Source: a virus (lineage: Duplodnaviria; Caudoviricetes). Taken from it: a stretch of DNA of 64,000 bases. Below, in pieces: positions 3,737 through 27,771 of this stretch (its first letter is position 1; every line of letters starts with the position of its first letter). The notes below the pieces were generated by a model, which saw only the letters and a list, made by a program, of their open reading frames with translations, had not been told where the DNA came from and did not search any database. The DNA is taken from IMG/VR virus record IMGVR_UViG_3300020577_007794; one strand, given 5' to 3'. The position numbers were made by a program, and so were the translations under genes.

Positions 3737-4675
3737 ATGGCTGACGAACCAATCACTAACAGAGACACAATAAAGCGTACTCCCCGAACAGACTCAAGAA
3801 GTTTTGTCTGGGCTAGAGATAGGAAAGTACCAAAAGACTTCTCAGGTGCTAAGGATTTATCCTTTGCCAATCTTCATGCTTACGCTGTAATTCCCGCAAG
3901 GATTGCTGGAAAGATACAGATGGCTGAAGTTGAACTGCCATCACTGACCCTTGTCGGCCTGTCTACACACCGGGATACTTTTCCTGTTGTGTCGTCAGGC
4001 CGTCGTGGTATTAAGGGCTTCACAACTGGACACGCAGTAGTTGCTGGTTCTCTTGGATTCACCATAACTGATGAAGCCCCTTTTGCTCCACTTCTCAGGG
4101 CATACGCAACCTATATAGGTAATGCAACTTACGCTGAGAGTTTTATGCCAAATGAACTTCCCCCATTTGATCTTGTTTGCGTATTTAAAGATGACAAGAT
4201 AAGAGATGGGGCCATGGGGTTTAAAATTAGTGGAATTAAGATTCTTGACAGCTCAACTGTTATAGGGGTTGATAATTTAGTCATCAACTACACCTACTCA
4301 TTTATGGCTATGAGAGTAACGGAAATGATGAACTTAGACCAAGTTCAAATATCCTATGAAGAGAATCCTAACTATATAAATCAGGACAGAGTAAGTAGGA
4401 GATCTAATCCCCCCAGGTTAAAACTTTCCTTTAACTGGGTTAGCAGCAACTCCGATACCTTCGAAAACTACGATTTTGGTTTCAATGACGACATAGTAAC
4501 TATCCCAGATGATGAAGATTCTTCCTCAGATAGTGACTATGAGTTCGGCATTATATCAGCAGACCCAGGAGTCAACAGATCTCTAAGTGGTTCAAGTGGT
4601 GCTGCTACAGCTGCAGACTCAGGCAGCAGCACTGATTTAGGGGCAGCGGCCCCAGGAGCTGTTTATCCATGGTAG
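3737..4675 (+). CDS. tail tube-fold paralogue with acidic low-complexity C-tail
   Basis: GFTTGHAVVAGSLGF and NELPPFDLVC match the motifs in 2874..3671. Confidence 0.65.
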   Translation: MADEPITNRDTIKRTPRTDSRSFVWARDRKVPKDFSGAKDLSFANLHAYAVIPARIAGKIQMAEVELPSLTLVGLSTHRDTFPVVSSGRRGIKGFTTGHAVVAGSLGFTITDEAPFAPLLRAYATYIGNATYAESFMPNELPPFDLVCVFKDDKIRDGAMGFKISGIKILDSSTVIGVDNLVINYTYSFMAMRVTEMMNLDQVQISYEENPNYINQDRVSRRSNPPRLKLSFNWVSSNSDTFENYDFGFNDDIVTIPDDEDSSSDSDYEFGIISADPGVNRSLSGSSGAATAADSGSSTDLGAAAPGAVYPW

Positions 4676-5525: not shown

Positions 5526-6215
5526 ATGCACAGAAAAGGCAAAATTACAGAAAAAGAAATTACAGAACTAAAAAGAGCGTGGCCAGGTGTGCCTTTGTTT
5601 AAGTTCGCTCTCCCTCAAGCACCGAATGATGAGTTTGTGTGCAGCACAATTTCTACTAAAACAGCTGGAAAGATTGCTGTTCTACGCGATGATGCTGCTA
5701 GGCAAAATAAACCTATCCCAGTTGACGATATTAATAGAAAGCTGTACGATGAGTGTGTTTTTTGGCCAAGTTTGACTCTCGAAGAAATCGAAGGTCTGCC
5801 AGTAGGTGTTATTCCGAGTCTATGTAAGATAGTTCAGGAAAGATCTGGTTATATAAGCATTGACATTCATGGAAGAATCTTGGCACCAGACTTCTCTTCC
5901 ACTAACGTAGCACCTTTCCCAGGTTGGGGAGATATATCCAAGGAAGAACTAGAAGAAGTCAAGAAGATTTTTCCGTACTCTCTTTATAGAGTTAAGCTCG
6001 AGCACTTAGTCTTTCTTATCAGACCTATGACTAGAACAGACCTCAGGATATCTATGCAAGCAGTAGATGATCAGATATCTTTGATTAAATCAATCACTGT
6101 TTGGCCTAAGGAAGTTGACTGGGAAAACATGCCGTCTGGTTGGATTGAAACACTAGGAAAAGTAGCAACTGAGATTAGTGGTTGGGAAGCTAACGTTTCT
6201 GTAGAAGAAATCTAA
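5526..6215 (+). CDS. tail assembly chaperone with two tandem domains
   Basis: Lies between tube and tape measure; internal duplication (ITEKEITELKRAWP / ISKEELEEVKKIFP; FWP..LPVG..SGY / VWP..MPSG..SGW). Confidence 0.65.
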   Translation: MHRKGKITEKEITELKRAWPGVPLFKFALPQAPNDEFVCSTISTKTAGKIAVLRDDAARQNKPIPVDDINRKLYDECVFWPSLTLEEIEGLPVGVIPSLCKIVQERSGYISIDIHGRILAPDFSSTNVAPFPGWGDISKEELEEVKKIFPYSLYRVKLEHLVFLIRPMTRTDLRISMQAVDDQISLIKSITVWPKEVDWENMPSGWIETLGKVATEISGWEANVSVEEI

Positions 6216-6219
6216 GAGA

Positions 6220-6792
6220 ATGAATCTCGATAGAAGATATAGATGGTTTAAGGTAAATCTTCTTGGACCTAATCGGGAACGAAAAGATTACGTCTTTAGG
6301 GGGATGACTTCTGGAGAACTAACCATTGCTGGCTCTAAAGAGGGGGAGTTTGAAGCTGAGAGCTTTATTCTCTCCCAATGCGTTGTAAATTACAACGAAG
6401 ACATTGAATGGGCTGGAACTTCTAAGACTCTCTATGATCTGATAATGAACATATCAGGTCTAGATGAGGATTGTAGAACTCTAAGGGAAGCACAGAAATG
6501 GATGCATCACGAAGAGGGTAAATATGAAGCTGTAGCTATTTCTATGATACCCAGCTGTACCCCAGAGATAATGAGAAATTGTGACCCCAGTGATAGAGCA
6601 AAATATCTTCTTCTTGGCAAGTTTATGTTTACATCAATTTACGGGAAAGAAGTTGATGAATTGTTTGGGGAAGCTGCTACAGCTCCTAACAATCTAGAAG
6701 ATGCGTTCTTTACAAATCCTGAAGTGCCTACTCCAGGAAGAAATGAAAAAGTTACTTTTGTAGAAGGTGGCTTCAATTGGAAGAAGTCATAG
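6220..6792 (+). CDS. second tail assembly chaperone
   Basis: YVFRGMT...AG...L...I..ISG resembles the domains of 5526..6215; directly precedes the tape measure. Confidence 0.55.
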   Translation: MNLDRRYRWFKVNLLGPNRERKDYVFRGMTSGELTIAGSKEGEFEAESFILSQCVVNYNEDIEWAGTSKTLYDLIMNISGLDEDCRTLREAQKWMHHEEGKYEAVAISMIPSCTPEIMRNCDPSDRAKYLLLGKFMFTSIYGKEVDELFGEAATAPNNLEDAFFTNPEVPTPGRNEKVTFVEGGFNWKKS

Positions 6793-9800: not shown

Positions 9801-12800
9801 ATCAGAAGAAGAGTTCAATGAAGAATTGTTTTACGGAGATGAGGCTGTACGTCGAGGAAGATTCTTTGTCATTGGCAGTAGAACCCCATTCACTGGTGGT
9901 GCAGTAGAGTATTTAAGACCCAACTTCTATAGAAGAATGAAGGCTCACTGGACAGAAGCTAGCAACGTCCAGCTTTCTAATCCCAAATACTCATTCCTTC
10001 CAACAATAACAAACCCACTTGCACCAATAAACAGGCTTCTCCATTCTGATTGGCAGGAGGAGTTAACTGAAGAAGATAGGCCTTATATGACAGGCAATCA
10101 ACTTCATGAGTTCCTTAACAACCAGCATCCTGGAGTTTATTTTGAGAATGCTCCGGTCGGTGGAGACGGTAATATTGGTTATATCAGTTACGGGGCTGGC
10201 CTACCAACCACTGTAAAGGCGTTTAGAGGCCTTTCTGGGGGCTTTAGCGGGGCGGGGGGTCCTGGAGGACCTGATTCTGGTTTTGGTGGCTCTACGGGCT
10301 TCTCAGGGGGCAGTGGGGGCGGCTCTGGTGGCAATACCCTAGGTAATGCTTATTATGAGCCTGGCACTGCTAAAATCAAGATTGGTAACAGAAAAGATAT
10401 ACCAGTAGATGCCCTTGAGAGAGATGGACTTCTATCTTATCTAGGAAGTATGGGTGAGGAGGCTACCAGACACATGGGGCTGTATGGTGGTATTCTAAGA
10501 AACTCCCCACTCAAATATGAACATGAAGGTATAGAAGTACAGGACCCAGAAGTAGCCTTTTCTAATAAAAGACTGTTCTTTAGTGGAGAATTTGGTGAAC
10601 TTACTGGCCCTGTTGGTGAATTTTACAGAAGGTTTATCTCAGAAGAGCATCAGTCTTTTGATGCGTTTAACCCTCTCCCAAACAGAATGCCAAGCTGGGT
10701 GCCTCAAAGATTCAGAACTGGTGACCCGTATATGCGAGTCTCTCATGGTGAATTCAATCTCCCAGGCGATGCCTATGAGCGACTCCACCCATACACTAGA
10801 CCTTTAAAAGCTAGAGGCTCTATGATTGGTCTTGAAAAGGATGAGATTGTAGCTAAAATGCTTGACCCAGTTGGTGCATACGAATCCGAGTCAGCAGAAG
10901 ACATAATGGGTTATGGTACGGCTACGCACAAACGTATCATGAGACAGCTTAGCAAGACTGGGATGATGGTGGGTGCTGAAGTTGCTGGATACGATCCAGT
11001 GCATAATATTTCAGCTACAATCGAAACTGTTATGAGAGGGCAGTCTGGTCTTGAAGTTGTAGAAATTAAAACCAGAGGTAATGAAACATTTAACACAGAC
11101 CCTGAAAAGTACGTTGATCAGTTGATGTTTTACATGTACCTTACCGGTGCAAAGCAAGGAAAAATTGCTCACGTTAATCGTGACAACCCCAACCAAGTCA
11201 GATTTGCAACATACAAATATGATGAAAATAGGATGCAAGCTGTTTTTGAAAGGGTGGAAGAGGCAAGGGGTGAGATCAGGGAAATGGTAGAAAAGGGGAT
11301 AGTTTCCCCCTACGAAACCTACGATCTTCTTTCTAGAATTGAAATCTTAGCTAAGACAGCCCCAGACTCTCCTGAATTTAGGGAGTATGTACACCATGCG
11401 CAGACTAAGGGTGGCTTTGGTGGTATGGAACAGGTTCGATTTGAACGTGCTATAAAATCGGCTCAACTTCTTAGAGAAGACTTTAACATCTATCCGTATA
11501 GAAACGTACCTACTGAAACTCGTGCTGCTAGAGTTAGGGGATTTACGGATGAAGGTGAAATTGTCACCAATATGGGTGTCATTAAGCTCGCCGGTGTGAA
11601 GTGGGATAAACAAGCTTTTACCATGCAAGACCCTGAAGATCTTATGTCTCAGTATGGAATTGTAGCAGGAAAAAGCATAAACATCACCCTTCCACAAGGA
11701 GGTTTTAATCCTGAGGTTATGGAAGATGTTACTACGTCTGCTTTGGTGGGTAATGTAAATAGCCGATTGATTCATTCCCAATATGCAGACCCAGACTATG
11801 CCGATAAATCAGCCATGGGTTCCCTTGCTAGGCAGGACAAATTAAACAGTCTTTTAGAGAAACTCCTTCACTCAGATAATGTTATCAGCAATAAATGGCT
11901 GAGGGTGAGGAGTGGTCTTGAGCAGTTTGAGCGAGGTGAAGTTTTCGGCACTGAGAACCAATCTTATAGAGATCTTTGGGGCAATTATATAGAACCAACA
12001 TTCAATATGGTCGTCTCCAAGAACCCTATTACTGCTGCTCTTCAAGGCGGTATTGTTACCTCTTTCTTCGTTAAAGGAAGGGCGGCGAAGGGTAAAGCTG
12101 CTTTGATTGGTGGTGCAGTAGCAGGATTGATATCTACAGGTAGGTTGGCCTATCAAGCTGTGACTGGAGAGACCCAAGTACCCCATAGATACAGGGCTCA
12201 GACAGAATTTGATGAGTACTACGACCTATTAAATTACATAAAACAGGCATCTCTGGGGGCGTCTGCGCAAAATCATGTCTATAAAAAGGATAAAACAATG
12301 AAAGATCAATTGGATTATTCAAATGTAAGTAGAACAAGAGAACAGGTGGATGCCTTCGGGGTGCTGGCTCTAGAGGCAGAAAGAAAAGCTAGACAAACTA
12401 TGTATGGCTTCGATGTAGTGAAAGGCACGTTGCAGGACGCACTAGCTGCTATACCACGACGACATAGACAGATAGCTGAGTCTGTAATTGTTGACGGGAC
12501 ACAGAGTGAAAAAGCTAAGTTCTATAACCTCCTTCCAAATTCGGAAAGAAGAGTATTAGGTAAGTTTCTCGGTAAACCACAAAGCTCTCTACCAAGTAAG
12601 CCTAGTCTCAATAACTACTTCAAGAATCACTTCCTTCCTGACGCTGACTGGTTGGGTTGGCACCGAAATGTTGACTTAGAAGACATAAAGACAAGAGCCG
12701 CAGCTTTAGAGAAGATGAAGATTGATCAACCATCAAGATCAAGAGTCAGTAAGGCTAGAGCTTATACCAGAGACATCCCAGTACCCAAAATGCACTCGAG

Positions 12801-13049: not shown

Positions 13050-14192
13050 ATGTTAAATATTAAAACACCTAACCAATTTTTAGATCTAGCACTACAAAAC
13101 GGTATCCCCGATACCTTAGCTCATGATATTTATCAGAGAAAAGCTGCTAGCAAAACAGTAGATGACGTTCTAGCCAATGCAGTGCTTACAGGTTACTTCG
13201 ACAATATTGCTGAAGCAAGAAAGGCATATGCTTTAGTTTGGCGAGATTGGGTCCTACTAACAAAGTCTTCTGCTATTATGGAGGCTGGAAGTATCAAGAC
13301 ATCTTCTAGTTCCCAATCTTATATGGTTGCTGTCGAACCTGACAAGGAAAGTATTCTTGAAAGAGCTTACTCTGCATTAGAATCAATGATCGGCCCTTGT
13401 GGAACCACAGCTAAATCAAAGACAACTGCCAACAATAAGATTATTCTGGCATCAGACTTTCATTTACCATTTCTGCACAAGCCAACCCTTAATGCAATAA
13501 TGGCCTCGGATTCTGACCACTTAATCATAGCTGGTGACTTTATGGATATGTACTCTGCTTCGTCTCACAGACCAAGTATTGACTATCTAACAGCTACGGA
13601 AGAGATAGCTATTGCCAGAGCTACTCTTGAAATGTTGGCTAAGAAATTTAAGACTATCAAAATGATTTCAGGTAACCACGAGAATAGAGTTGTGAAAAAG
13701 ATTCAAAATCTTGCTCCACAACTTCAGCCTCTAGTTATCCACCCATTAAAGTTGATTAGCTACGGATTGGATAATGTTTCAGTTGAAAATCTAACAATCC
13801 CTAATACAGCACCTATGTCAGCTTTTGCAACAGACATTGACCTAGACTTCGCAATGGTTGAAAGCAATATGTTGGTGGGTCACTTTGAGGAGTTCTGTGG
13901 TGATGATGCCCCAGTTAAGTTGGAAGAGTGGTTGAATAAATTCTCTCACAAGCTTCCGTTTAAGGTATCTGACATCAAAGCAGTTTTTCAAGCGCATACA
14001 CATAGGCTAAATATGCGATACACCGCAACTGGTAGATTGCTGATTTCTACAGGTTGTGCTTGCGGAGTTCAGGAGTATGTGTGGAGACAGCATAGCAAGT
14101 ATTCTCCACCTACTCCAGGCTTCGTGGAACTTTTTTACGATGAAAAGGGAAATATTGACTTCCCCCAGACAAAACTAGTATATACAGGCTAA
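13050..14192 (+). CDS. calcineurin-like metallophosphoesterase
   Basis: SDFH, AGDFMD, GNHE, GH and AHTH motifs in canonical order. Confidence 0.85.
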   Translation: MLNIKTPNQFLDLALQNGIPDTLAHDIYQRKAASKTVDDVLANAVLTGYFDNIAEARKAYALVWRDWVLLTKSSAIMEAGSIKTSSSSQSYMVAVEPDKESILERAYSALESMIGPCGTTAKSKTTANNKIILASDFHLPFLHKPTLNAIMASDSDHLIIAGDFMDMYSASSHRPSIDYLTATEEIAIARATLEMLAKKFKTIKMISGNHENRVVKKIQNLAPQLQPLVIHPLKLISYGLDNVSVENLTIPNTAPMSAFATDIDLDFAMVESNMLVGHFEEFCGDDAPVKLEEWLNKFSHKLPFKVSDIKAVFQAHTHRLNMRYTATGRLLISTGCACGVQEYVWRQHSKYSPPTPGFVELFYDEKGNIDFPQTKLVYTG

Positions 14193-14583: not shown

Positions 14584-17500
14584 GTGGCTAGACTGGATAG
14601 AATAACCAATCTGCCTACCGAACCAGGCGATACGGTTCGAGATAAGAAAACTAAGACCGATTACATAGTCCAGTCTATAGTCCCCTATGTTGTGGGTGGA
14701 GCTAGCTTATACTACCTACTTAACGCCTATACCGGCAAATTAGAACAAGTTATAGCTAATGATTTAAAAGACAGAGACTTTCAACCAACAAGAAAGAATG
14801 TGGAGAGAATGACCCCAGAACAGGTCAGAGAATCTAGATTAGATACGTTGGTACGTGGAATGAAAGGCAACGAAGATCTTCTTCGGAAACTAGAAACACC
14901 AGAAGGCTCAGTATTTCGGGACCTGCTTCTTCTCATAGATGATATGGATGATAGTCAGGTTAAAGAGAAGTTTAGAAAATTTGGAGAAACCTTAGTTAGT
15001 GTAACTGACAGGGTGTATAACTCTACCGAGATTCTCGAGTTGATGCAGCAATCACTTGGGGACTCGGCTTCTTTTTATGGACATGAGTACCTTTCAGATT
15101 TAGCAGAAGAACTCAGTGAATACACTTCTGCAAGAACAGGCACTAATAAACTTTCTACTTACGCTGTTCCAAGATTCAACGCAACCAGAGATATTGCCGG
15201 ATTTGAAAAAGTCAACGGTAAACAGGGTTTTGTAGATAGGGCACTTCAGTACTCACTCAGTAAAAGTGAGAGATCCCTTTCTTCAAGAAAAGAGTTTGTA
15301 AATACAGTAAGACAGACTGTTTTTAATAGAGAAGGTTTCTCTTCCCCAGCTATCAGAAGATCAGCTGGAATGAACGAACTGTTTGATAATATTACCGACC
15401 CATATTCCAGAGTTGCTAAAATGGTAGCTGCGTCTCTTGGGGGGAAAGCTACTGAAGAGACCAGAATTGTAAGGAACATCACCAATAAAATTCTGAATGG
15501 GGACGAAGCTTTAACTGCTGCCCTTATTGACTCAGATATAAACGGTATCTTCTCTAATCTCTATCGTCAAACAACATTTAGAACTAGAGCTGGATTAGCT
15601 AATAAACTCTCAGCTAGAAGAACATCTAGCGCGGCCAGGAGAGCTAGACCTACAAAAAGATTAAATGTATCAAGTCTTTTGAAGGGTATGGACAGAGTTG
15701 GGGATACTGAGAAGTACATATCTATAAGCAAGAGTTCATTAATAAATGATGTTATAGGCTCAAAAAGTGTATCTGTAAATTCTTCTAAAGGTATTGTTGG
15801 GACCCTTAGACAAGACGCAGTTCGCAAGAAAATGGAATCTCTTCCAGAGGTTATTACAATGCCAGCCTCTGTGTTAAGAAAACAGGTGGATTCTAACATT
15901 GTCTCCATTGAAGAGATAGAACTGGCACATAACCAAACACCACAACAAATAAGCAGAGAACTTCGTGGAAAGATGGGTGGAAGAGGTGCTGCGGTTGGAT
16001 ATGCTGGGGCGTTTAACCACAATGCGAAGGCTGCATTTTTCGAGGTCAATGATAAAAAATTTGACACACTAGAAAAGGCTAGAACCAACCTCCTTCCAGA
16101 TCAGAGCATCTATAGTATAAAGGCTTTCAACAAAATGGGGAATGAAATACCTCTTTTCCCCCAGGTAATAAAAGTTGAAACTGATATGGACTTGGTAAAT
16201 GAAAGCTACCACCAAGCCAAAGATGAATCAAGGCTGGCTTATTATACTATACAAAATTCTTCTGGAGAGAAAAGTGTTAATCTAATTGGTTCGTCAATGA
16301 ATGTTTCTATTGATGACCAGATTGACAGAGCCTTCGCAGCTGCTAATACCAGAGGTAGAAGTTCCCTATCTTTGGATATTGAAAACAACCCAGAAACAGG
16401 TGCTATCACAGAGATAGGCGTAAGCTTTAGAGATACCGAAGGTGGTTACAAACCTCACTTCAATTTTGTGGCTGGGAATGGAGAATCTGAATCTAATGCT
16501 ATTCTAAGACTTGTAGGTAGATTGGAAAATGCTGATTATGTCGGCACTATGACAGCCCATGACTTCAGTACACTAGCTTCTAGAGCCATGGCCTTATCCA
16601 AAACCTCACAGAGCCCAACAATGCAGAAGAACTTGGAGGCGGCATACTATAAGCTTCTAGAAATTGAGCAAAAAGCTGGGTATGACTTTACTGTAGGTTT
16701 GACAGCTGCTGGGCAGTTTGGGGATACCCCCTTGACACTTGGTAACATAAGCCAGGATTACCTTTCCCCCAAAATCCTAGGCAGGGCTGAAACTCATACT
16801 GCTATGCAAGATAGTATGGACGCTCTTGAAATCCAAGATAAAATACGGGTTGGAGAGCTTCAAGCAAGCAAAGCAGAACTCGGAACAATCTTCCAAGTAA
16901 GATCAACCAGAGTTAATAGAGACGGTTCTTTTGGGAGATTGACAGGCTTCGAAAGACGTGGTGAAGGAAGTTCAGCCTTATTTGAAGAAATGGTTTTCAA
17001 TGAAGGCCGATTTACCACAACTGGTTCTTTATTTGAGCTTCAAGCTGACGGTACTTCACAGCTTGGTGCTGCTATGCGTGGCCTCATTCCAGTAGGTCAT
17101 GGGGAAGCTGTTGCCCCCAATGTTGATATAAATGAAATGGTTCAATTCACTTCCAGGAGAATGGAAGAAAGAGGTTCCAGAATTATTAGAGGCATCAACC
17201 CGCTTAACACGTCCTATTACGATGCTACAACTAGATTTGGAATTGAAGGTGGAAATCTTTTTGGTCTACACGAACTTTCAGTGGTTCAACAAACCAGAAG
17301 TCTTTTAGGCAGCGAGAAGGCTCAGGAAATTCTTAAAAATGTTGGAAGTATGCAGTTTGATCAGATAGAAGAAGCTGCTAGAGACTTGGCATCAACTGTT
17401 CAACTTGGAGATGACGCATCCAAACCTGGATACCAGGCAAGACTTGTAGAGAGTGTGACAAATGCTTTTACGGATGCACAGTACCGACAATCCTTGACTA

Positions 17501-19089
17501 AATCTTCCCTAACTGATCTTCTTGACTCAGCTGCTGGTAAGTCTTTAGTTGGGATGGCAGAAAAAGGAATAGATGGAAACTTTATTGAACAGTACGCTGC
17601 TCCTGCGTTGAGCCTTTCCTTTATGGGAGAAGTTGCCGGTATTCAGGCACCAACATCGTTTGTTTCCGACCCGAGACTGCGACTTCAAACCTTTGACAGA
17701 TCGGGACCTTTCCAAGGTGCAGTGACAAACGTTCTTGGCTACAATACTACTGAAAGAGAGGTAGAAAACTCTGTCAAGAGTTTGATAGGTCAAACTATGC
17801 TAGCTACCACTTCCAGCAAAGCCCCTGGAGCGGGTGCCTTTATAGAGAATGCAATCGGCCCAGAGGGACTGAACAAAGTAATTGAAAGTGTTTCCTTACT
17901 GAGACAATCAAAAGAGATCAAGGATGACATCCATGCACTCGATGCCCTCTCTACCACACTTTATAGTGACCCCTCTATAAAAAGGTTAGCTGATGCTATA
18001 GATGAATCGGATTTCTTCCACGGAAACATTAAAGAACAGCTTCTTCGTAGAAATGATCTTCTAAGAGAACACAAAGATGCACTAGGTGTTCATGATGTAG
18101 ATATTATTACTGAACGATTTAAAAACATAGTAGAAGAGGAGTTTGCTAAAACTAGTTCTGCATCTTCTGCAACTGCCGCATCTATAAAGAGAGCACAAAA
18201 TCAACTAGGTGATGCCGCACACACTCTATTCTCTGACGTAACACCTGACTCCTTAGATTTTAATGCCATCTCTAAATTAGGTTCAGAGAAGGTTGATGAA
18301 TTAACAAATGATGCACTGAGAAGAATACATGAAATGACCACTCAAGGTACAGGTGGTTCGGATGTATTGCAACATATTTTTGATAAAACAGGTGAACTGA
18401 GAAATGTATACTTTAAGTCTGGTTTATCGCCAAGAGATCAAGCCATAGCCTTAAATGCATTTGTTAAAGAATCTGAAGAAGTCGTTAAATTGGGTTCTCA
18501 GACAACTAACCCTATTGAACTGGTTCATTCAGTGTTCTTGAAGTACCAGAATGCTGCTCAAACAGCAAAAGCTTCCGCCCCAACGTTGACTGAAATGCAA
18601 AGCACTATAGTCAACCAAGCTACCTCACTTGCAGCTAATGCTTCTGAGGATATATCGTTGAAGGAAGTACAACATACTGTTCTTCTTGGCAACAAGATTG
18701 CCAGTGAAATGGAACTCAAAAAAGTTACGGTACCTCTACTAGCTGTAGGAGGTTTGTTAGCTCTTATTGCAGGAAGCAGCAGACCTAAAGAGGAGTATAG
18801 TGGTGGATACGCCAGCAAACAGTCTCCAGGGGTCATAGCGGCCCATTCAGAGATACCCGGCACTGGATCTGGTACCAGAGTCTTTATGGGTCAGGAAGCC
18901 CCCTTCCAAACAACAGTGAATATGACATCCTATGTTCAGTCTGAAAGAGAGAAACAAGCTATACAAACCAAAGTGTACGATATGATTACTGGAACAGCTA
19001 GACCAGTTCAAGTACGAGTAGACAATAAAGACTTTAGAAAGAATGATCACAGAGAAACAGCTATGGAGCAACTAAGACAGGCATTGTAA
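14584..19089 (+). CDS. giant virion/ejection-like protein with embedded DEDDh exonuclease domain
   Basis: 1501 aa, mostly helical-looking; LSLDIE, VGTMTAHDF and HTAMQD motifs; C-terminal hydrophobic helix VPLLAVGGLLALIAG. Confidence 0.6.
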   Translation: MARLDRITNLPTEPGDTVRDKKTKTDYIVQSIVPYVVGGASLYYLLNAYTGKLEQVIANDLKDRDFQPTRKNVERMTPEQVRESRLDTLVRGMKGNEDLLRKLETPEGSVFRDLLLLIDDMDDSQVKEKFRKFGETLVSVTDRVYNSTEILELMQQSLGDSASFYGHEYLSDLAEELSEYTSARTGTNKLSTYAVPRFNATRDIAGFEKVNGKQGFVDRALQYSLSKSERSLSSRKEFVNTVRQTVFNREGFSSPAIRRSAGMNELFDNITDPYSRVAKMVAASLGGKATEETRIVRNITNKILNGDEALTAALIDSDINGIFSNLYRQTTFRTRAGLANKLSARRTSSAARRARPTKRLNVSSLLKGMDRVGDTEKYISISKSSLINDVIGSKSVSVNSSKGIVGTLRQDAVRKKMESLPEVITMPASVLRKQVDSNIVSIEEIELAHNQTPQQISRELRGKMGGRGAAVGYAGAFNHNAKAAFFEVNDKKFDTLEKARTNLLPDQSIYSIKAFNKMGNEIPLFPQVIKVETDMDLVNESYHQAKDESRLAYYTIQNSSGEKSVNLIGSSMNVSIDDQIDRAFAAANTRGRSSLSLDIENNPETGAITEIGVSFRDTEGGYKPHFNFVAGNGESESNAILRLVGRLENADYVGTMTAHDFSTLASRAMALSKTSQSPTMQKNLEAAYYKLLEIEQKAGYDFTVGLTAAGQFGDTPLTLGNISQDYLSPKILGRAETHTAMQDSMDALEIQDKIRVGELQASKAELGTIFQVRSTRVNRDGSFGRLTGFERRGEGSSALFEEMVFNEGRFTTTGSLFELQADGTSQLGAAMRGLIPVGHGEAVAPNVDINEMVQFTSRRMEERGSRIIRGINPLNTSYYDATTRFGIEGGNLFGLHELSVVQQTRSLLGSEKAQEILKNVGSMQFDQIEEAARDLASTVQLGDDASKPGYQARLVESVTNAFTDAQYRQSLTKSSLTDLLDSAAGKSLVGMAEKGIDGNFIEQYAAPALSLSFMGEVAGIQAPTSFVSDPRLRLQTFDRSGPFQGAVTNVLGYNTTEREVENSVKSLIGQTMLATTSSKAPGAGAFIENAIGPEGLNKVIESVSLLRQSKEIKDDIHALDALSTTLYSDPSIKRLADAIDESDFFHGNIKEQLLRRNDLLREHKDALGVHDVDIITERFKNIVEEEFAKTSSASSATAASIKRAQNQLGDAAHTLFSDVTPDSLDFNAISKLGSEKVDELTNDALRRIHEMTTQGTGGSDVLQHIFDKTGELRNVYFKSGLSPRDQAIALNAFVKESEEVVKLGSQTTNPIELVHSVFLKYQNAAQTAKASAPTLTEMQSTIVNQATSLAANASEDISLKEVQHTVLLGNKIASEMELKKVTVPLLAVGGLLALIAGSSRPKEEYSGGYASKQSPGVIAAHSEIPGTGSGTRVFMGQEAPFQTTVNMTSYVQSEREKQAIQTKVYDMITGTARPVQVRVDNKDFRKNDHRETAMEQLRQAL

Positions 19090-19800: not shown

Positions 19801-22800
19801 ATGCTGTCAGCCTCACTCTCAAATCTTATCAAATCAACAACCAACACTGTTAAGGGTCAGTTGGTTAATATAGGTAGATCAGGTACTAAAGTTGTCTTTG
19901 AAATAAAGACTGCTGATAGTAAGATTTATAAGGTATCAGCAACAAGCAGTCAAGCTGCCATAATTGTTAAGACACTTAATCTGTCTCAAAATATCGTGGC
20001 CGCAGCTTTGGGGCCTGGAATAAGTGATGAACTAAGAAGCAACCTTATCTCTGATAAAATTTTTGTTGAGATTCCAGTAGAGAAGTCAATATCAGGCTCT
20101 GAAGCTTCTGTGTTGTCTGGTGGAGAAAGAAAGTCTAGTAGAATAGAAAATCCCACTACAACCAAAGGAAAGGCTGAAGATGAGAAGAAAGAAAAGGAAG
20201 ACTTAACTACAGTCTATCCTACAGATAATTGGCCTGGATTGATGGAAGAATCGAGGTTTTTACCTGTTAAAGTTCCAGGCATACTGGGAACCTCCAACAC
20301 AAGAATAGGTCATGCTGTATTCTCAGCACCAATTCAGTTCTTTACATCTCAAAGAACCAGCTATATAGAGCAGAGCCCCACTCTTAGAGAATCTGGGTCC
20401 ATTAAGAAAGGTACGGGATTAGCCTTTCAAACGTATACCATTAACTATTTTGCTACAGATGCTGAGGAAGTAAGAACCTCTGTAAAGGAGGTTTTTGATC
20501 AACTATTGTTACTGCCGTTTATATCGTGCCAAGGTGGTCCATTTGGGTTTACCCCAGGGGATGGGGACATCCCGTACCACGATTTTGCAGTGAGATCTTA
20601 CTCACTTGCTACTGTGCCTGGGCACCCATCAGTCTTGAATGTGCAGATTTCTCTAGAACCACTGCTATTCGATATTTACTGCCAGGTCAAAGACTGCAAA
20701 GAGAGCCAGTCTGGTTATCAAGTAACCATGGATGACATTGTTTGCTGGCCTCTGGTTAAACTTTGGACAGGTTCTAACGAAAAGTCAACCTATAACCCAA
20801 TTCTAACAACGCTCAACGGCTCACTTAGAATGTCTCTCCCATCTAAAAAGGTTATTAACAGAATTGTAGATGAGGCTGATAAGTTTAAATCAACCTTATT
20901 AAACACAGAGGTTGATACACTAGAGACATTAAAAATTCTCATAACAGAACCTAGAGGTGCTGCTATTTCTTCTAACAATGCTAAATTGGTAGAGTCGGAA
21001 GTACTGGCTGGTTCTGGCAGAAAGATCGCTGTAGTTAAATTTGAAGACCAATTTAACTATTCTAGTCTCCAGCAAAACAGTCAATTTTTAGGACTAGTTA
21101 GATGGGAAAAGTTTTCAGGAAACCGATTCTCCAGTAACGGAACATTCCTTCCACAAAGTGGTACCGTTAATCTTGACAGATCAAGCAGCTTTGTAACAAA
21201 TCAAGTTGGGATAACTAACTATAAAACACGAGGGTCTAACGAGTTTAGTTGGATTGACGTTGTGGCCAGTAAGGGAGACATTTCAACCCTAATTGATCAG
21301 TTCTTGAAAGATGAACAAAAACAAAGAGCTGAACCAACTAGTCAGTTAGGGACGCTGCCCTCAATCAACCCACTAACTGATGACATGATTACCCATATCA
21401 AGAACAACCCATGGGAATACTTTGCACTAGTTCTCGATGTTAAGGTAGAAAATGAATCATCGCTATTAAGATCAATTAATCAGCTTTTGAATCAAGCTAA
21501 AACAAAAGCCACTATTCCGTCTATGTCAGAGAGAAAGAACTTTGATAGGATTTTAGCGGAAGAAGATTTAGTAGATTCTGAAGTCTTTATGGATACAGGG
21601 ATAGGGAATACTGACCTAATAATTGAATCCATAATGTCCACTAGGACTAATAATCTTTCTACACAACATGTTCAGGGATGTCATATACCTAAGCATCAAT
21701 TCTTAGGCGGTGGTACTGCAGAGTTTTCTATAAAAGGAAAATGTCTGTCAAAGACTGCCAAAGAAAGATTAGAGGCACTAAAACTGGAATTTGATAGGAG
21801 ATGTCATCTAACTTTTTCTGGCCCCTCCGCAGGTTCTATAAAGAATAATCCAGATAGCACACCATTTGTACGAGTGGTAAATGAAGTATTCCAACTCATG
21901 GGTGTTGACTTTGTTATGCCTGTATCATTGCGGGTTGACTCTATCCCAGAACAACCTAATGTGTGGGAATTCGAAATGGCACTCCTTGAGTTCAATCCTA
22001 AGACTCAGGCATCTGAAAGAGTTAAATTCTTAGAAACAACTCTTCAAACACAGGCAGCAGTTCTAAATTACCAAGCCCCAGGAGATCTAACCCCAGACCC
22101 TCTCATACAAAAGGCTCAGGAATATTTCTCTTTAGAAGATTCTTTGAAGAGTCTTGAGATACTGCCTGACATGGGTCTCCCTACTAAAACTATTCTTGAT
22201 AAGTGGATAGATATTATTAGAGAAGAGGCTATTTACAGGAAGATCAATAAAGTACCTAGACCTAAATCAACACTCTCAGCCACTGAAGCTGAGGTAGTTG
22301 ACCACCTAGAACACTTCTTCCAAAATAATGACTGCCTTACTATAATGTCCCACTTTAAGGAGAGGGATACTACTAAAAGAACTTCTTACACTGGATCATT
22401 TGTAGACCCGGATTTCTACTTCTTCTATGACCCTAATAAAACTTGGGGAGCATTGCTCGATAAGTTGGCTATGCAGGAATTTGGAAGAAGGCTTCCTGGT
22501 TTCTCCTCCGATAAGGTAGAGGAAAATGGTTTAGAAGCGTTCTATCAAGAATTCTCTCCACTCTTCGGCACCACAACCATGTTCTCTTCAGACTACCTTT
22601 CATCTAGGGCGTCTACCACTGAAGATGAATTGATAAGTGCTGCTAAGAACTCATACCCACCATCTCTAGCAAAACAAGCACATGATGCCACAATGTCTCA
22701 GGTTGAGGGTGCTAAATTTGAACAGTATCCGGGAGCATGGTGGACAACACCAACCAATGTCTCACCTGTTGATGAAACAAAGACATTTGAAGACAGCAAC

Positions 22801-25800
22801 CCAGAATACTTAAAGGGTCCTTACATTAATCCTAATGTTAAGGTATCTGCCTTTGACAGTAATGCTGCTAACACAGGGGTTACCCCAGCTGAGTTTGACG
22901 GAAGTTTAGAAGAGTTTCTTTCTATCGCATGGAGACGAAAACGAGCTGAAGTTAACACTTCATATGCCTTAAAGGATTCTAATATTAGACTTAATGGTGG
23001 CAGTGGTATAGGGTTTGCTTCTAAAGACGGTATTAGTTTCTACAAGAGTTTAATAAACTCAGGCTTCCTCTTTACTGCACAACCTGTGTCAACCTACTCT
23101 GCTATTGGGGGAAGTGTTGGAGACTTTGGAAAGTATAACTATCTTGCTGACAATCTTCCCATGGATGCCAGCTATATCTCTGCACGATTAAACGGAGTCC
23201 TTCCAGTAGGTGGTAAATCCCTAAAAGAGATAGAAGAGGAATCAAAGATAGCCCTCCTTCAGACAGGACATGACGACCTGGTTTCTGAATGGGGATATAT
23301 TCCACGATCAATCCATGCTACAAGAAAATACGCAATCCGATATGGTGGTACAGAGATTGTGGCAACACCATTGGCGGCTTTGGGTGCCACCACTACTGAA
23401 GCTTTGGTTAACACCCAGGATATGTTTAACTCCATTGCTGGTAAATACAGAATTGATCCAAATATTGCTAGAGCTTTCTTCCTAAGAAGAACTGGATTTG
23501 GCACTATAAAGAACGAAACTGTTGACAGCAACGGTGTGGGTTTTGGTGACCTGTCGGTGGATATAGCTTCTAAATTATCAAATGCAGAACAAGTAGAATT
23601 ATTCTGTGAGAAATTTAGAAGAAACTTAGACAGACTTAACAACGTTCCAACACTAGCCTTAGCTGCTACAGTAGCTCAGCTTACATATAAAGGAAGAGCA
23701 CTGTATGTTACTGGTACAGATGGTATAGGTACATCAGAGCCAGGTGGTTCGTCTGATAAGTTTAGACTTAACAAACAGACTTTCTACAACGTCTTGAAAG
23801 AGGCAGCTAGCAAGCTTAATAGTCCAGAAACCAAGTTCTCTATTAAAGGTGCTGAAATCATAACTAATGCTTTGGCCAAGACTGCTTTAGCGTCAGATAT
23901 TGATACGTATTGGACAGCATATATTGAGGTCTGCAGAGTCTTAGGATCAGTGAGACTTCCTGGACAATATCTAAGTAAGGTGGATGCCTACTTCGATCCC
24001 TTCAACGCATTGATTCTTACTGACAGTGAAACTAACACTGAATATGCAAACACCTCCCTTACTCCTTCAGGAAATAAGATAAGGGTATCAATGTCCAGAG
24101 GAGAAGTAACACAAACTACAGCTGACATACAAGTATTGGGTGACCCTAATAATCCTGTCTCAGCTGAGCAGGATGCAGAACTCAGGGTAAGGTTAAAGTT
24201 CGGTCTTGAACCTCATTCAGAAGCTTCTGCATGGGGCTCCATGTTTGACTGTAGACGGTATTCTGTGTTTGGTAGGTTTGTCCAAGCCTATCCGTCATTC
24301 TGTGTTCTCCTTGTAAACGAAGGTTTCTACTTTGCGGAAGGTTCTGTTAAATTGTGGGACCAATTCTACACACGAGCTGGCATCACAAATATTGAAGTAT
24401 TTAAGAGTAGGAAAGACCCTGCGCATAGCTGTTCTGTAACATACTCTAATATGTTCTACTCCATCTCTAGATACACACAAATGGAGGCATTGAGGCAGGA
24501 AATAGCTGTGGATTCTAATAATAGATTCCAGAGTACTTTTGGTCTTGGAGCAGGAACACCGCTCGAGTCTATCGAGGGCGCACTAAGACGTTTCTGGGCC
24601 GCAGCTATTTCTAAGGAACCTGACCCAAGACTCTTGAAGACTTGGGCCACGAACCATCTTAATCAACTAGCACTTACTGCTGGAGCGAGAATCCAAGTAA
24701 GAATGGGTTATGGGTCCAACGCCTCAACCCTTCCAGTAGTATTTAACGGTACAATTATTGATGCACCAATTGGTGGACAAGGAGAAGTAACTATTAAAGC
24801 AGCTGGGGATGGCTTTGAGCTTAATAACCCAGTTACTGATAGACTTGTAAAAGTTGATAATGGTTTTGCATACAGAAGTCAAGAAGGATTTTTAGGGGCT
24901 GGTACCGAACCCAGCCAAATCGTTGTTCAGAGTATGATTCCCAACTCGATGTTCGTAGCTGCTTTAACACAAGGTAGATATGGAGTAACAAGAGTTGCCC
25001 CGCACTTCGGAGAGATAATCTTCGGTGGTACGTCATACTCCATTCCTGAAGTTATGATGAATATGTATGGTGCGTCAAGAAAACACTTGTCACAGTCATT
25101 CAACTTCATCAAGAATACCTTTAACAAAAACGCACTGTACAACTGGGATGACACTACACTAATTAGTGTCTCTGTACATGAACCTACAGTTTGGAAGACT
25201 GCACAAGTCTGCGCCCAAGCTGTTATGGATTACGTCACATCACCAGAACCCTTCCATACAAGATCAACTCTCTTTTTTGGAAGGTGGTGGTACCCATTTA
25301 ACTACGCGTACTCTCCATCTATACTAGGACAAAATAATGTTTCCTCTCTTTACACAGCATCTAGATCTACTACTGCTAACAGCGTACCATCTATTGATGG
25401 CTCTACCCCACGCAATACCTCTCCTAAAGGGTTTCCTACGCAAGAAGCCAAAGGAGTCGAACTTAAGTTCGAAATCCTCCCAGACGGCCCATTTAAGGAA
25501 ACTCTCGAAAATGAGAAAAATGTAGCTACTCTTGTAGACCTTAATGTGTTTGATAAAAAGGAAGACACAGCTACAATCATTGCAGGAGTAGCTGGCCTAT
25601 TCGGACAATCCTTAGCTGCTAATCTTTTAGCAGAACTGAAGAAAAAATATCTAGGGTCCGATGAAAAAGCAAAGTGGGGCTTTGGTATATTCAATCCAAA
25701 GAATGGAGGCCCTACATATGCGCTAGTCATGACCTTAGGTGATGATGGTATTTTACGAACACAAAAACTAAAAGACTTCACGTACACCCCAAGCAGTGCT

Positions 25801-27771
25801 GGTGCTATTTTGACTACAAATGATCAAACAATAGTGGACAATGCAGACCCAACAATGTTGAGGGATGTTGAAAATTTCGTAAAACACCTTTATTGGAAAC
25901 CATATATTCAAGCATGGCCAGCAGTAACAGGACTCAACCTCCTTTCCAACAACATTGTTCCATCTCAAAAAGATGTGTACACTGATGCTAAAGGGCAACA
26001 TACGTTTAATGGTTGGATATCTAGAGATACCCCTGTAAAAACAATCACGTATTGTGTGGACAGTGATATATCACCAAGTACTCGAAGAACTATGTTGGTT
26101 GATACCGGTCTTCTTGTAACAACCGTTCAAAGAGGTTTCACAAATACAGTTGCAAAGGGTGCAGCTAATATAGCTAACTCAGTTCTAGGTTGGACTCCAT
26201 GGACTCCGGTAATTTCTGAGTTTATAAATGAAACTCCAGATACCCCTGCTATCGAAAACTCTGTTGTTAATGCTTTGTGTAATTCTGTTAAGGAAATGTA
26301 TCAAGGATGGTTTTCTATTTCTGGTCAATCAGCTATGAAACCAAACGATCTAGTTCTCCTTAACGATGCCTACAACGGTATGGAGGGGCCTGTTTTTATA
26401 GGGGATGTTATTCATAGAATGGATTCCTCTACAGGCTTTGTTACCTTAATTTCTCCAGACTGTGTAGCTCTCCCACACTCAGCAATTATCGGCCAGAGGT
26501 TGATTGTGGCGCATTCAAGTGGGCCGTTAGCTAAGGCTGGTCAGTATGTAATAGGTTCAGCTGCCTGGGCTGCTATGGCTTTTTCACTTAAAAAGCTTTC
26601 TTCAAATCCATTCTCAGCAAGGATATTGGAGTTAAAAGAGTTAACAAATAGGTACACAGTAGCTGAGGCTTTGGGTTCTAAAAATCTTACTAACACTGTA
26701 AAGACGCAAATTCTTTCTGCTATTGATGCTAGAATGGCGGCAATAGCAGAAGCAAGTAAAAAGGGATTATTCTCGTCTCTACGAATAGAACAACTTAAGA
26801 AAACAAGACAGGCAATCGAGGCCTCAGAAAATCTTTCTGCAGTCTTCCTTTATGCTAATGAGTCTGGTATAAACGTTGGACAGATTCTCAGGGATATTCC
26901 AGGTGTTAGCCTTGATTTTGAGAGATTGGTTTCTATTATCCATAATTCTCAAAATCTTTACATAGAGATGTTGAGAGAACTAAAAGCAAACCCAGCTACA
27001 TCTCAGCTATCTGAGCAGGAAATTATTAGGCTAGTAGAAAATAAGGTAGTAAAACAGCTAAATCAAACTTTGATTGATGCTGATCTAGCTGTTGCAGGAG
27101 ATTCTGCAACTGATGGGCTATCTGAAATATCTGCTCTCCTAAGAAATGAATCAAAACTGAGACCATTAATTGATCCAGGAACTATCCAAGTTACCGATGA
27201 AGTTATTGAAGAAGCCTGGGCAGCTGCTAGATTCAAAGCAGCTACATCACCTGTTAGACTTGTAAATATGTTGAAGGGGGCAGAGGTTGCGCTGTCTGAT
27301 AGTGTCAGATTGAGGCGAGCAACAAAACTTCTTTCCAAATCTATATCAGGATTGTCATTGGCTTTGTCAGCAATTGGTCCCGGAGTAATTGCTAGACTAG
27401 CATTTGAAGTGGTGAGATTTAGCATCGGTCAAACAGTTATACAAGGTATTAACTCTAGACTTATGGCTAGACAGGCTGTAAAAATATTTCCACTTAGAAG
27501 TATTCAATCCAATGGTACCTCAATTCCGTTTGTAGCTGGAATTAGAGGACATCAAGGAGCAGTAGTTGGGGACGACCCAGGCTACTTCGATAAACTTCTC
27601 AGTGGTAAATTTGAACCCAGCATCCCCTTTACAGATGGTTTGAAGCTTTCATTCATTCTGTCTGCTCTACTTGGTGTTGAGATACCTGAGTACGGTAATA
27701 CGGATGTTGACAATCTTTACATCCAAAAGATGAAAGAAGTGGAGGATAAGAGAGTAAATGGAAGAAGGTAA
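19801..27771 (+). CDS. baseplate hub-like giant tail protein
   Basis: 2656 aa; RIQVRMGYG...VVFNGTI and G...MKPNDLVLL...VIHRMD...GFVT hub motifs; degenerate SLT-like segment. Confidence 0.7.
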   Translation: MLSASLSNLIKSTTNTVKGQLVNIGRSGTKVVFEIKTADSKIYKVSATSSQAAIIVKTLNLSQNIVAAALGPGISDELRSNLISDKIFVEIPVEKSISGSEASVLSGGERKSSRIENPTTTKGKAEDEKKEKEDLTTVYPTDNWPGLMEESRFLPVKVPGILGTSNTRIGHAVFSAPIQFFTSQRTSYIEQSPTLRESGSIKKGTGLAFQTYTINYFATDAEEVRTSVKEVFDQLLLLPFISCQGGPFGFTPGDGDIPYHDFAVRSYSLATVPGHPSVLNVQISLEPLLFDIYCQVKDCKESQSGYQVTMDDIVCWPLVKLWTGSNEKSTYNPILTTLNGSLRMSLPSKKVINRIVDEADKFKSTLLNTEVDTLETLKILITEPRGAAISSNNAKLVESEVLAGSGRKIAVVKFEDQFNYSSLQQNSQFLGLVRWEKFSGNRFSSNGTFLPQSGTVNLDRSSSFVTNQVGITNYKTRGSNEFSWIDVVASKGDISTLIDQFLKDEQKQRAEPTSQLGTLPSINPLTDDMITHIKNNPWEYFALVLDVKVENESSLLRSINQLLNQAKTKATIPSMSERKNFDRILAEEDLVDSEVFMDTGIGNTDLIIESIMSTRTNNLSTQHVQGCHIPKHQFLGGGTAEFSIKGKCLSKTAKERLEALKLEFDRRCHLTFSGPSAGSIKNNPDSTPFVRVVNEVFQLMGVDFVMPVSLRVDSIPEQPNVWEFEMALLEFNPKTQASERVKFLETTLQTQAAVLNYQAPGDLTPDPLIQKAQEYFSLEDSLKSLEILPDMGLPTKTILDKWIDIIREEAIYRKINKVPRPKSTLSATEAEVVDHLEHFFQNNDCLTIMSHFKERDTTKRTSYTGSFVDPDFYFFYDPNKTWGALLDKLAMQEFGRRLPGFSSDKVEENGLEAFYQEFSPLFGTTTMFSSDYLSSRASTTEDELISAAKNSYPPSLAKQAHDATMSQVEGAKFEQYPGAWWTTPTNVSPVDETKTFEDSNPEYLKGPYINPNVKVSAFDSNAANTGVTPAEFDGSLEEFLSIAWRRKRAEVNTSYALKDSNIRLNGGSGIGFASKDGISFYKSLINSGFLFTAQPVSTYSAIGGSVGDFGKYNYLADNLPMDASYISARLNGVLPVGGKSLKEIEEESKIALLQTGHDDLVSEWGYIPRSIHATRKYAIRYGGTEIVATPLAALGATTTEALVNTQDMFNSIAGKYRIDPNIARAFFLRRTGFGTIKNETVDSNGVGFGDLSVDIASKLSNAEQVELFCEKFRRNLDRLNNVPTLALAATVAQLTYKGRALYVTGTDGIGTSEPGGSSDKFRLNKQTFYNVLKEAASKLNSPETKFSIKGAEIITNALAKTALASDIDTYWTAYIEVCRVLGSVRLPGQYLSKVDAYFDPFNALILTDSETNTEYANTSLTPSGNKIRVSMSRGEVTQTTADIQVLGDPNNPVSAEQDAELRVRLKFGLEPHSEASAWGSMFDCRRYSVFGRFVQAYPSFCVLLVNEGFYFAEGSVKLWDQFYTRAGITNIEVFKSRKDPAHSCSVTYSNMFYSISRYTQMEALRQEIAVDSNNRFQSTFGLGAGTPLESIEGALRRFWAAAISKEPDPRLLKTWATNHLNQLALTAGARIQVRMGYGSNASTLPVVFNGTIIDAPIGGQGEVTIKAAGDGFELNNPVTDRLVKVDNGFAYRSQEGFLGAGTEPSQIVVQSMIPNSMFVAALTQGRYGVTRVAPHFGEIIFGGTSYSIPEVMMNMYGASRKHLSQSFNFIKNTFNKNALYNWDDTTLISVSVHEPTVWKTAQVCAQAVMDYVTSPEPFHTRSTLFFGRWWYPFNYAYSPSILGQNNVSSLYTASRSTTANSVPSIDGSTPRNTSPKGFPTQEAKGVELKFEILPDGPFKETLENEKNVATLVDLNVFDKKEDTATIIAGVAGLFGQSLAANLLAELKKKYLGSDEKAKWGFGIFNPKNGGPTYALVMTLGDDGILRTQKLKDFTYTPSSAGAILTTNDQTIVDNADPTMLRDVENFVKHLYWKPYIQAWPAVTGLNLLSNNIVPSQKDVYTDAKGQHTFNGWISRDTPVKTITYCVDSDISPSTRRTMLVDTGLLVTTVQRGFTNTVAKGAANIANSVLGWTPWTPVISEFINETPDTPAIENSVVNALCNSVKEMYQGWFSISGQSAMKPNDLVLLNDAYNGMEGPVFIGDVIHRMDSSTGFVTLISPDCVALPHSAIIGQRLIVAHSSGPLAKAGQYVIGSAAWAAMAFSLKKLSSNPFSARILELKELTNRYTVAEALGSKNLTNTVKTQILSAIDARMAAIAEASKKGLFSSLRIEQLKKTRQAIEASENLSAVFLYANESGINVGQILRDIPGVSLDFERLVSIIHNSQNLYIEMLRELKANPATSQLSEQEIIRLVENKVVKQLNQTLIDADLAVAGDSATDGLSEISALLRNESKLRPLIDPGTIQVTDEVIEEAWAAARFKAATSPVRLVNMLKGAEVALSDSVRLRRATKLLSKSISGLSLALSAIGPGVIARLAFEVVRFSIGQTVIQGINSRLMARQAVKIFPLRSIQSNGTSIPFVAGIRGHQGAVVGDDPGYFDKLLSGKFEPSIPFTDGLKLSFILSALLGVEIPEYGNTDVDNLYIQKMKEVEDKRVNGRR

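Follow-up and report, generated by a model that had tools for sequence, protein, structure and literature searches.

The stretch of DNA analyzed here (the window) comprises 64,000 nucleotides of an uncultured virus of the Caudoviricetes (IMG/VR record IMGVR_UViG_3300020577_007794), a record of 194 kb with a CheckV completeness estimate of 84%. An open reading frame (ORF) at 6802-12975 of the plus strand encodes P0001, a protein of 2,057 residues (aa) that is a homolog of gp145 of Bacillus phage 0305phi8-36 and that includes a PD-(D/E)XK domain of the RecB/Cas4/lambda-exonuclease class at aa ~1332-1504. A preliminary description, made from the nucleotide sequence, had placed a RecB/Cas4-like domain of this kind at 10800-11280, close to the core of ~10795-11313 as delimited here. 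All of the strings that it quoted are found in the P0001 frame at the coordinates it gave: MGYGTATHK (aa 1369-1377, starting at 10906), AEV (aa 1392-1394), ISATIETV (aa 1403-1410), VVEIKT (aa 1419-1424, with EIK at 11062-11070), Gln1440 (at 11119, within QLMFY) and G.IAHVNRD (aa 1453-1461). The Gly-rich linker that it noted upstream of the nuclease is likewise present. The features of P0001 are as follows.

10228..10347, plus strand: Gly-rich linker (aa 1143-1182)
10720..10794, plus strand: 5' scaffold flank (TGDPY...GE..LPG.AYE..H), kept with or without the nuclease core; cluster of intein sites in relatives
10795..11313, plus strand: PD-(D/E)XK nuclease core (aa ~1332-1504), RecB/Cas4/lambda-exonuclease class, a discrete insertion domain
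10915..10929, plus strand: motif G-T-A-T-H (G1372, H1376)
10978..10980, plus strand: conserved Glu1393
11014..11025, plus strand: motif II, A-T-I-E (family consensus G-x-I-D), with Glu1408 at the acidic metal-ligand position
11062..11070, plus strand: motif III, E-I-K (E/D1421, K1423)
11119..11133, plus strand: motif Q-L-M-F-Y (Q1440, Y1444)
11314..11496, plus strand: 3' helical scaffold flank (Y..DR..IL..AP.S.E..), kept with or without the core
11509..11841, plus strand: SNase-like OB-fold domain (aa ~1570-1680), degenerate signature KLAGVKWDKQ

Hydrophobic segments occur at aa 14-32, 921-939, 973-991 and 1766-1784, and the N-terminal 1,300 and C-terminal 350 residues of P0001 have no match in Pfam or PHROGs.

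The assignment of aa ~1332-1504 to the RecB/Cas4/lambda-exonuclease class is upheld by PHROG, profile-to-PDB and predicted-structure matches. The domain matches PHROG 1706 (phage Cas4-like, E 7e-15) and PHROG 434 (RecE-like exonuclease, E 1.4e-10). A search of PDB sequences with the single domain returns only spurious matches (one helix against designed PPR repeats), and NCBIfam offers nothing useful for this domain, for the metallophosphoesterase encoded downstream or for a nearby ORF of 103 aa. A profile of 120 family sequences (A1) retrieves Cas4 SSO0001 (4ic1) from the PDB at E 3.4e-9, with weaker matches to Cas4 Pcal_0546 and MGME1; the G-x-x-D, E-I-K and Q-x-x-x-Y of the family align with the motifs of both Cas4 proteins. 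The AlphaFold2 model of the domain from the A1 alignment (pLDDT 91.2, pTM 0.85) has a helix (59-81), three strands (85-94, 99-109 and 112-121), a helix (131-144), two strands (148-155 and 162-168) and a helix, which is the alpha-beta-beta-beta-alpha-beta core of restriction-endonuclease-like proteins. Significant Foldseek matches of the model include lambda exonuclease (E 1.5e-6), LHK-Exo, Cas4, MGME1, RecE, Exo5, AdnAB and Dna2, and VIA-align gives Z scores of 15.4 for Cas4 4ic1, 14.8 for a Cas4-Cas1 fusion, 13.4 for MGME1 and 13.3 for lambda exonuclease. The top matches of both programs are all nucleases of the RecB/Cas4/lambda-exonuclease class and mostly exonucleases, such that AlphaFold2, Foldseek and VIA-align agree on the restriction-endonuclease-like fold on which the preliminary description had staked its assignment. 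The Pfam comparison that it proposed is less clear-cut: PDDEXK_1 (PF12705) scores 21.9 bits (E 1.9e-4) with the domain alone, 21.3 bits in the genome search and 17.7 bits with the whole protein, the gathering cut-off of 22 being an operational threshold, and for Cas_Cas4 (PF01930), which does match control genomes, nothing in the 194-kb record reaches E <= 0.1. Most characterized members of the RecB/Cas4/lambda-exonuclease class act on DNA ends.

Among cultivated phages, the nuclease domain is matched solely by ORF145 of the Bacillus thuringiensis jumbo myophage 0305phi8-36. BLASTP aligns P0001 to gp145 (YP_001429636) over aa 1210-2018 (6e-62) and aa 904-1106 (1e-21), and the homology spans the conserved C-terminal ~1,150 residues at ~25% identity. 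In GenBank, gp145 is a 'virion structural protein; identified as virion protein by mass spectrometry'. Further matches, to the part of the scaffold upstream of the nuclease, occur in Bacillus phages Edson, vB_BceM_WH1 and vB_BauM_KLEB27-3 and in Moorella phage MTATph1; the five phages matched by tblastn with P0001 are Bacillota jumbo phages. Since the cultivated phages that match the scaffold are all of this kind, a Bacillota host is a reasonable guess for the phage studied here. By megablast, the P0001 gene has no match among cultivated phages. A nuclease label is absent from the records of 0305phi8-36, WH1 and MTATph1 and from the search listings of the others, in which the homologs are termed 'virion structural protein', 'structural protein' or 'hypothetical protein'.

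The gene order of the window also parallels that of 0305phi8-36. The sheath gene (1071-2852) is followed by two tube-like genes, an ORF of 281 aa, two small ORFs in the chaperonin position and P0001, and then by the metallophosphoesterase, the 103-aa ORF, an ORF of 1,501 aa, an ORF of 236 aa, a gp147-type hub and the SLT and VanY cell-wall hydrolases. The order of sheath, tube, tube paralog, chaperonins, gp145, giant gene and hub is common to the window and 0305phi8-36 and is found as well at three further loci (L003, L005 and L006). In 0305phi8-36, gp145 sits between the tail chaperonins gp143/gp144 and gp146, and it is gp146, not gp145, to which the tape measure is assigned (PMC2147016). The term 'tape-measure-like', which the preliminary description applied to P0001, thus holds only for gene position, downstream of the pair in the chaperonin position. 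The counterparts by position or family are listed below; the 1,501-aa protein has no detectable similarity to gp146 of 0305phi8-36.

5526..6792, plus strand: two small ORFs (229 aa, 5526-6215; 190 aa, 6220-6792) in the gp143/gp144 chaperonin position, by position only and with no family match
14584..19089, plus strand: cysteine-free ORF of 1,501 aa in the position of gp146 (assigned tape measure)
19801..27771, plus strand: baseplate hub of 2,656 aa, gp147-type (phrog_20474, E 4.4e-85)

From the fold of the domain and its place in a gp145-type protein, we lean toward the reading that an active nuclease of the RecB/Cas4/lambda-exonuclease class is carried by a virion protein and is deployed at infection. 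The distribution of the nuclease core across the family bears on this reading. A search with the A1 profile against cultivated-phage homologs and scaffold-seeded matches identifies 13 scaffold homologs from which the core is cleanly missing. The flanks are retained in these proteins, at profile positions 1-27 (TGDPY..GE.RLPG.AYE) and 201-263 (Y..DR..ILADVAPYS.EY), and are joined by 3-8 residues, whereas positions 28-200, which correspond to P0001 aa ~1332-1504 and hence the entire core, are absent. Two cultivated phages are represented among the 13 (vB_BceM_WH1 gp096 and MTATph1 CDS26). By contrast, gp145 of 0305phi8-36 has the core with all motifs and an extra ~60 residues between motifs II and III. 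When the sequence downstream of the core is used for a tree (IQ-TREE quick search with 73 rows, midpoint root), core-less proteins form three groups that are nested between branches with the core; at least three changes are needed, of which at least two are forced by well-supported branches, and core-bearing proteins stand on both sides of the midpoint root. The simplest reading of this tree, which is strictly unrooted, would be that the core is ancestral and has been repeatedly and cleanly lost. Since the core-less homologs have a scaffold that works without it, the nuclease is an accessory 'cargo' activity that the structure does not require.

The same distribution speaks to the alternative that the nuclease serves morphogenesis, acting on phage DNA in the producing cell during packaging, head-tail joining or end trimming and staying in the particle as a by-product. 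T4 gp4 provides a precedent, as PMC7824862 presents it as a virion-associated nuclease of restriction-endonuclease fold that is needed for packaging, and both the location of the P0001 gene within the late structural block and the conservation of the catalytic residues are compatible with such a role. An essential assembly step is nonetheless unlikely given the 13 homologs that have the same scaffold and no core, those of two cultivated phages among them. In addition, the fold is nearer to end-processing exonucleases (Cas4, lambda exonuclease and MGME1) than to TnsA-like enzymes, and the gene resides in the tail module instead of a head-completion module. A packaging role is, therefore, regarded as unlikely.

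Returning to deployment of the nuclease at infection, the amino acid composition of P0001 is of relevance. The preliminary description had remarked that the Fe-S cysteines of Cas4 are absent, and this extends to the whole protein: none of the 2,057 residues is a cysteine, so that Cas4-type Fe-S ligands are not possible. The same is true of 100 of the 114 intein-free members of the family (those of less than 2,250 aa), of gp145, WH1 gp096 and MTATph1 CDS26, and of the 1,501-aa neighbor. In intein-bearing relatives, the mapped inserts account for all or nearly all of the cysteines, and the remainder in one of these relatives (P0041) is clustered at a suspected further intein. Other proteins of the window, which are neighbors not of the lumen type, contain 0.3-2% cysteine, and at a background of ~0.7% the chance of finding none in 2,057 residues is, by our own arithmetic, on the order of 1e-6. 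We infer that the absence of cysteine may be an adaptation to unfolded exit from the particle and refolding outside a controlled redox environment, which would also explain a Cas4-like fold devoid of Fe-S.

A second module follows the nuclease and its helical flank. The model of aa ~1570-1680 (pLDDT ~90 in the core and 79.6 overall) has staphylococcal nuclease or Tudor-SN as every listed Foldseek and VIA-align match, at middling scores (Foldseek E 0.02, probability 0.98; Z 8.0-8.5 over ~103 residues, rmsd ~3.5). The sequence KLAGVKWDKQ stands in P0001 where thermonucleases have R-L-x-G-[IV]-D-x-P-E. Because this active-site signature is degenerate, the modeled domain is probably a non-catalytic OB module, and it may be a nucleic-acid-binding one. 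In the related BtI1 element, the hub protein has a staphylococcal-nuclease domain, which Hardies et al. (PMC2147016) record and leave unexplained; thus, nucleic-acid-directed modules recur on tail-internal proteins of this lineage.

The catalytic positions of the nuclease are conserved throughout the family. An exhaustive HMMER search at E <= 1e-3 finds 296 representative clusters at the 50% identity level. The median length is 2,091 aa for the 161 family proteins that were retrieved, and residues were counted in 137 full-coverage representatives. The five RecB-family motifs named in the preliminary description coincide with conserved positions of this set, conservation of the motifs running at 91-98%. 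G1372 and H1376 are each kept in 133/137, the N-terminal motif taking the form G-[ST]-x-x-H, and the same count applies to E1393, K1423 and Y1444; Q1440 and R1489 are kept in 134/137 and R1460 in 127/137. Position 1421 is acidic (E/D) in all but one (136/137) and position 1408 in every representative (129 Asp and 8 Glu). P0001 is among those with Glu, and the replacement of the motif II Asp that the preliminary description reported is, thus, real. Glu1408 is confined to the clade of P0001 (P0001, P0002, P0003 and P0005-P0010), where it is always paired with a change of Gly1405 to Ala, and one further clade member (P0004) combines Ala1405 with Asp1408. Asp and Glu at this position, therefore, appear to interchange within a lineage that keeps all other catalytic positions. 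Relative to an 89%-identical homolog (locus L006), the nuclease core has a pN of 0.076, a pS of 0.62 and a dN/dS of ~0.06, with synonymous sites near saturation. The motif II Glu accordingly gives, as far as can be judged from sequence comparison, no sign of decay, being clade-specific and set in a domain that retains its other catalytic positions under strong purifying selection. The predicted nuclease domain is probably catalytically active.

An inert domain is the alternative that these data address most directly. In this case, the fold would bind DNA ends or serve a structural purpose, such as holding or capping the genome end, and the Asp-to-Glu change of motif II would mark lost catalysis. 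Glu1408 in place of the usual Asp and Ala1405 in place of Gly are in keeping with such a loss, and dead nuclease folds do occur in P0001, as the adjacent SNase-like domain has lost its catalytic signature. Yet Glu retains the carboxylate and Asp is found at the same position in the Ala1405 clade (P0004), while H1376, E1393, E1421, K1423, Q1440 and Y1444 are kept both in the clade and across the family. A domain that only binds DNA would have no need of the full set of metal ligands and Lys, and the low dN/dS likewise disfavors decay. An inert module is, on these grounds, quite improbable.

The gp145-like gene is also a hot spot for inteins, with at least nine insertion sites in relatives, six of them within aa 1292-1372. 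The sites map to P0001 aa ~1074, 1292, 1300, 1306, 1311, 1322, 1372, 1439 and 1690, in relatives P0002, P0003, P0005, P0017, P0021-P0023, P0041, P0063, P0078, P0113, P0115-P0117, P0120 and P0145, and several of the inserts match Pfam LAGLIDADG and splicing domains. P0001 itself has no intein, and Pfam detects no Hint or splicing domain around its nuclease. Two of the sites fall at nuclease motifs. In P0113, a LAGLIDADG intein (Pfam LAGLIDADG_3, 6.8e-11) directly precedes S-QLNFY, and in five relatives a probable divergent intein, with Cys1 and a C-terminal Asn followed by Ser+1, separates G1372 from T/S1373 (weak Hint matches: PDB 2lwy, E 0.0032; Pfam Hint, E 0.038). As inteins typically settle at functionally constrained sites, their presence at these motifs would fit an active site. 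The inteins also invite the explanation that the domain is the remnant of an in-frame homing-type endonuclease insertion with no role for the phage, which could account for at least six intein sites in the same ~100-residue stretch of relatives and for the clean presence/absence polymorphism with fixed boundaries; it is very improbable given that P0001 has no Hint or splicing domain around the core, that the motifs and fold are of the RecB/Cas4/lambda-exonuclease class and not of known homing endonuclease families, that both sides of the family tree have the core, in a pattern that fits ancestral presence with two to three losses, and that the core is under strong purifying selection at 50-90% divergence and is itself an intein target.

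An active nuclease carried by the virion and deployed at infection thus remains the reading that we prefer, and it suggests the following sequence of events. P0001 would form part of the virion and would probably occupy the tail lumen or belong to the ejected material. At infection it would exit in extended form, which would account for its lack of Cys and of an Fe-S cluster, its Gly-rich linker and its hydrophobic segments. The nuclease domain would then refold at the envelope or in the cytoplasm and act on DNA, aided by the adjacent SNase-like OB module. DNA ends of the host or of competitors, or else those of the phage genome as it enters, would be the likely substrates. In a more specific form, which is put forward tentatively, the domain would be a 'pilot nuclease' of the Cas4/lambda-exonuclease type, stripped of Cys and Fe-S for threading through the tail, delivered with the genome and acting in the first seconds of infection. 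Such an enzyme might resect the terminal repeats of the incoming linear genome or destroy DNA ends of the host, of plasmids or of rival phages before phage genes are expressed.

Several considerations weigh against deployment of an active nuclease at infection. For every member of the family, the nuclease is a prediction from sequence and models, and the virion location is known only for the distant gp145 (~25% identity), from a GenBank note. A folded domain of ~20 kDa would have to be unfolded in order to pass the tail tube. The PDDEXK_1 match of the domain is 0.1 bit below the curated cut-off, and although no other PDDEXK_1, YqaJ or Cas_Cas4 match occurs in the 194-kb record, that record is 84% complete and other nucleases may be missed. 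Glu as the first acidic ligand could lower or alter activity, and the repeated loss of the core shows that some lineages can do without the activity.

The gene directly downstream of P0001 encodes a second enzyme.

13050..14192, plus strand: calcineurin-type metallophosphoesterase of 380 aa (Pfam Metallophos, 23.3 bits; cut-off 21.5)

The motifs of the metallophosphoesterase are intact (DFH, GDF, GNHE, GH and HTH) and are preceded by an N-terminal extension of ~125 aa. In several relatives that bear the nuclease, it is likewise the next gene downstream. A homolog follows the gp145-like gene at loci L006 (79% identity), L003 (37%), L004 (25%, E 2e-13) and possibly L005, and is absent from 0305phi8-36, WH1 and MTATph1. 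A PDB sequence search with the protein gives no match. The enzyme is a possible second phosphoesterase of the tail module, acting on nucleic acids or nucleotides. A candidate DEDDh exonuclease domain within the 1,501-aa ORF (aa ~593-749; 16360-16830, plus strand) finds no support in Pfam at E <= 1 or in a PDB sequence search. Upstream, the ORFs at 2874-3671 and 3737-4675 (plus strand) match phrog_9206, which is labeled 'major head protein'. The GenBank entries of 0305phi8-36 gp140 and gp141 have the product name 'major head protein' with the notes 'tail tube' and 'tail tube paralog', and are the apparent source of this label; thus, the two ORFs are most likely genes for the tail tube, and their label a misannotation that has been propagated. 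Further downstream, two ORFs at 27758-29156 (plus strand) directly follow the 2,656-aa hub and overlap it and each other; they encode a lytic transglycosylase of the SLT type (Pfam E 1.6e-27) and a peptidase of the VanY/M15 type (E 5.8e-19). An ORF of 436 aa at 30911-32221 (plus strand), encoded after a gp25-like sheath initiator, has a SEC-C metal-binding motif (Pfam E 2.8e-9) at its end, which is unusual in a baseplate block.

Phage nucleases are normally made after infection, and the enzymes known from phage proteins of the tape-measure or ejected type target the cell wall. The nuclease core described here occurs in at least ~300 clusters of mostly uncultured jumbo phages, is unannotated in their cultivated relatives and, if the preferred reading is correct, would provide a DNA-directed activity that is delivered together with the genome. 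In a partial literature search, neither gp145-like nor tape-measure proteins are described as having a nuclease. What is new is that a nuclease of known class is found in an architecture and a biological setting not reported before, together with the discrete insertion core, the inteins at motifs, the cysteine-free protein and the degenerate SNase-like fold that follows the nuclease. Were the more specific proposal of a 'pilot nuclease' true, the core would represent a class of virion-delivered nucleic-acid effector within a tail-lumen protein, the loss or retention of which would reflect host-specific conflicts. The presence of the core in 0305phi8-36 and its absence from vB_BceM_WH1 offer a ready-made natural comparison. 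A Cas4-like fold free of Cys and Fe-S would be an example of adaptation to tail passage, and the many inteins at its motifs recommend the gp145-like gene as a model of how inteins select their sites. If the domain were inactive or confined to assembly, the finding would reduce to a domain annotation for the gp145 family.

Of the known systems, Cas4 (SSO0001, 4ic1; Pcal_0546, 4r5q; Cas4-Cas1, 7mi4/7mi5) is the best match to the nuclease domain by profile and structure, with G-x-x-x-H, G-x-x-D, E-x-K and Q-x-x-x-Y aligned. Unlike Cas4, the domain of P0001 lacks cysteines and Fe-S, is embedded in a protein of 2,057 aa and has tail genes as neighbors instead of a CRISPR context. A true Cas4 is rejected by the missing Fe-S cysteines, the missing PF01930 match and the missing CRISPR context. 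The nucleases of the lambda exonuclease/RecE/YqaJ type (1avq, 3sm4, 3h4r and 3k93) and MGME1 share with P0001 a fold without Fe-S (Z 13-14). The phage exonucleases differ in that the P0001 domain is internal to a protein of the late tail module and is not an early recombination gene. A YqaJ or lambda Red exonuclease is rejected, as the 194-kb record has no match to Pfam YqaJ (PF09588) and no annealase is adjacent, the gene being flanked by the ORFs in the chaperonin position and the metallophosphoesterase. With gp145 of 0305phi8-36, P0001 shares the scaffold, the gene order and the nuclease core, and the insert of ~60 aa is an extra of gp145 only.

Enzyme domains are established in tape-measure and ejected proteins, as exemplified by the peptidoglycan hydrolase motifs of T5 Pb2 and of mycobacteriophage tape measures and by the transglycosylase of T7 gp16. 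P0001 is similar to proteins of the T5 Pb2/T7 gp16 type in having a catalytic domain on a very long tail-lumen or ejected protein with linkers and membrane-like segments. By contrast with their activity against the cell wall, the P0001 domain is predicted to be nucleic-acid-directed, and P0001 resembles a tape measure by position only. T4 gp4 (PMC7824862) is a PD-(D/E)XK-superfamily nuclease tied to the virion, as the P0001 domain would be, but it is a small stand-alone protein of the TnsA-like branch that belongs to the head-completion module and has a packaging role. The injected 'polyvalent proteins' of phages and conjugative elements are portrayed, in PMC5512222, as large, multidomain proteins that are delivered with DNA and that supply effector enzymes for the first minutes of infection; by a term search, tape measures, RecB and REase are not mentioned there. 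P0001 is similarly large and multidomain and, as with the packaged proteins of the P1 Dar type, would be delivered. Whereas polyvalent proteins have many enzymatic domains and processing peptidases, P0001 has one nuclease and one degenerate SNase-like domain in a structural scaffold. By analogy, the closest conceptual counterparts of P0001 would, thus, be the enzyme-bearing tape-measure and ejection proteins and the injected polyvalent proteins.

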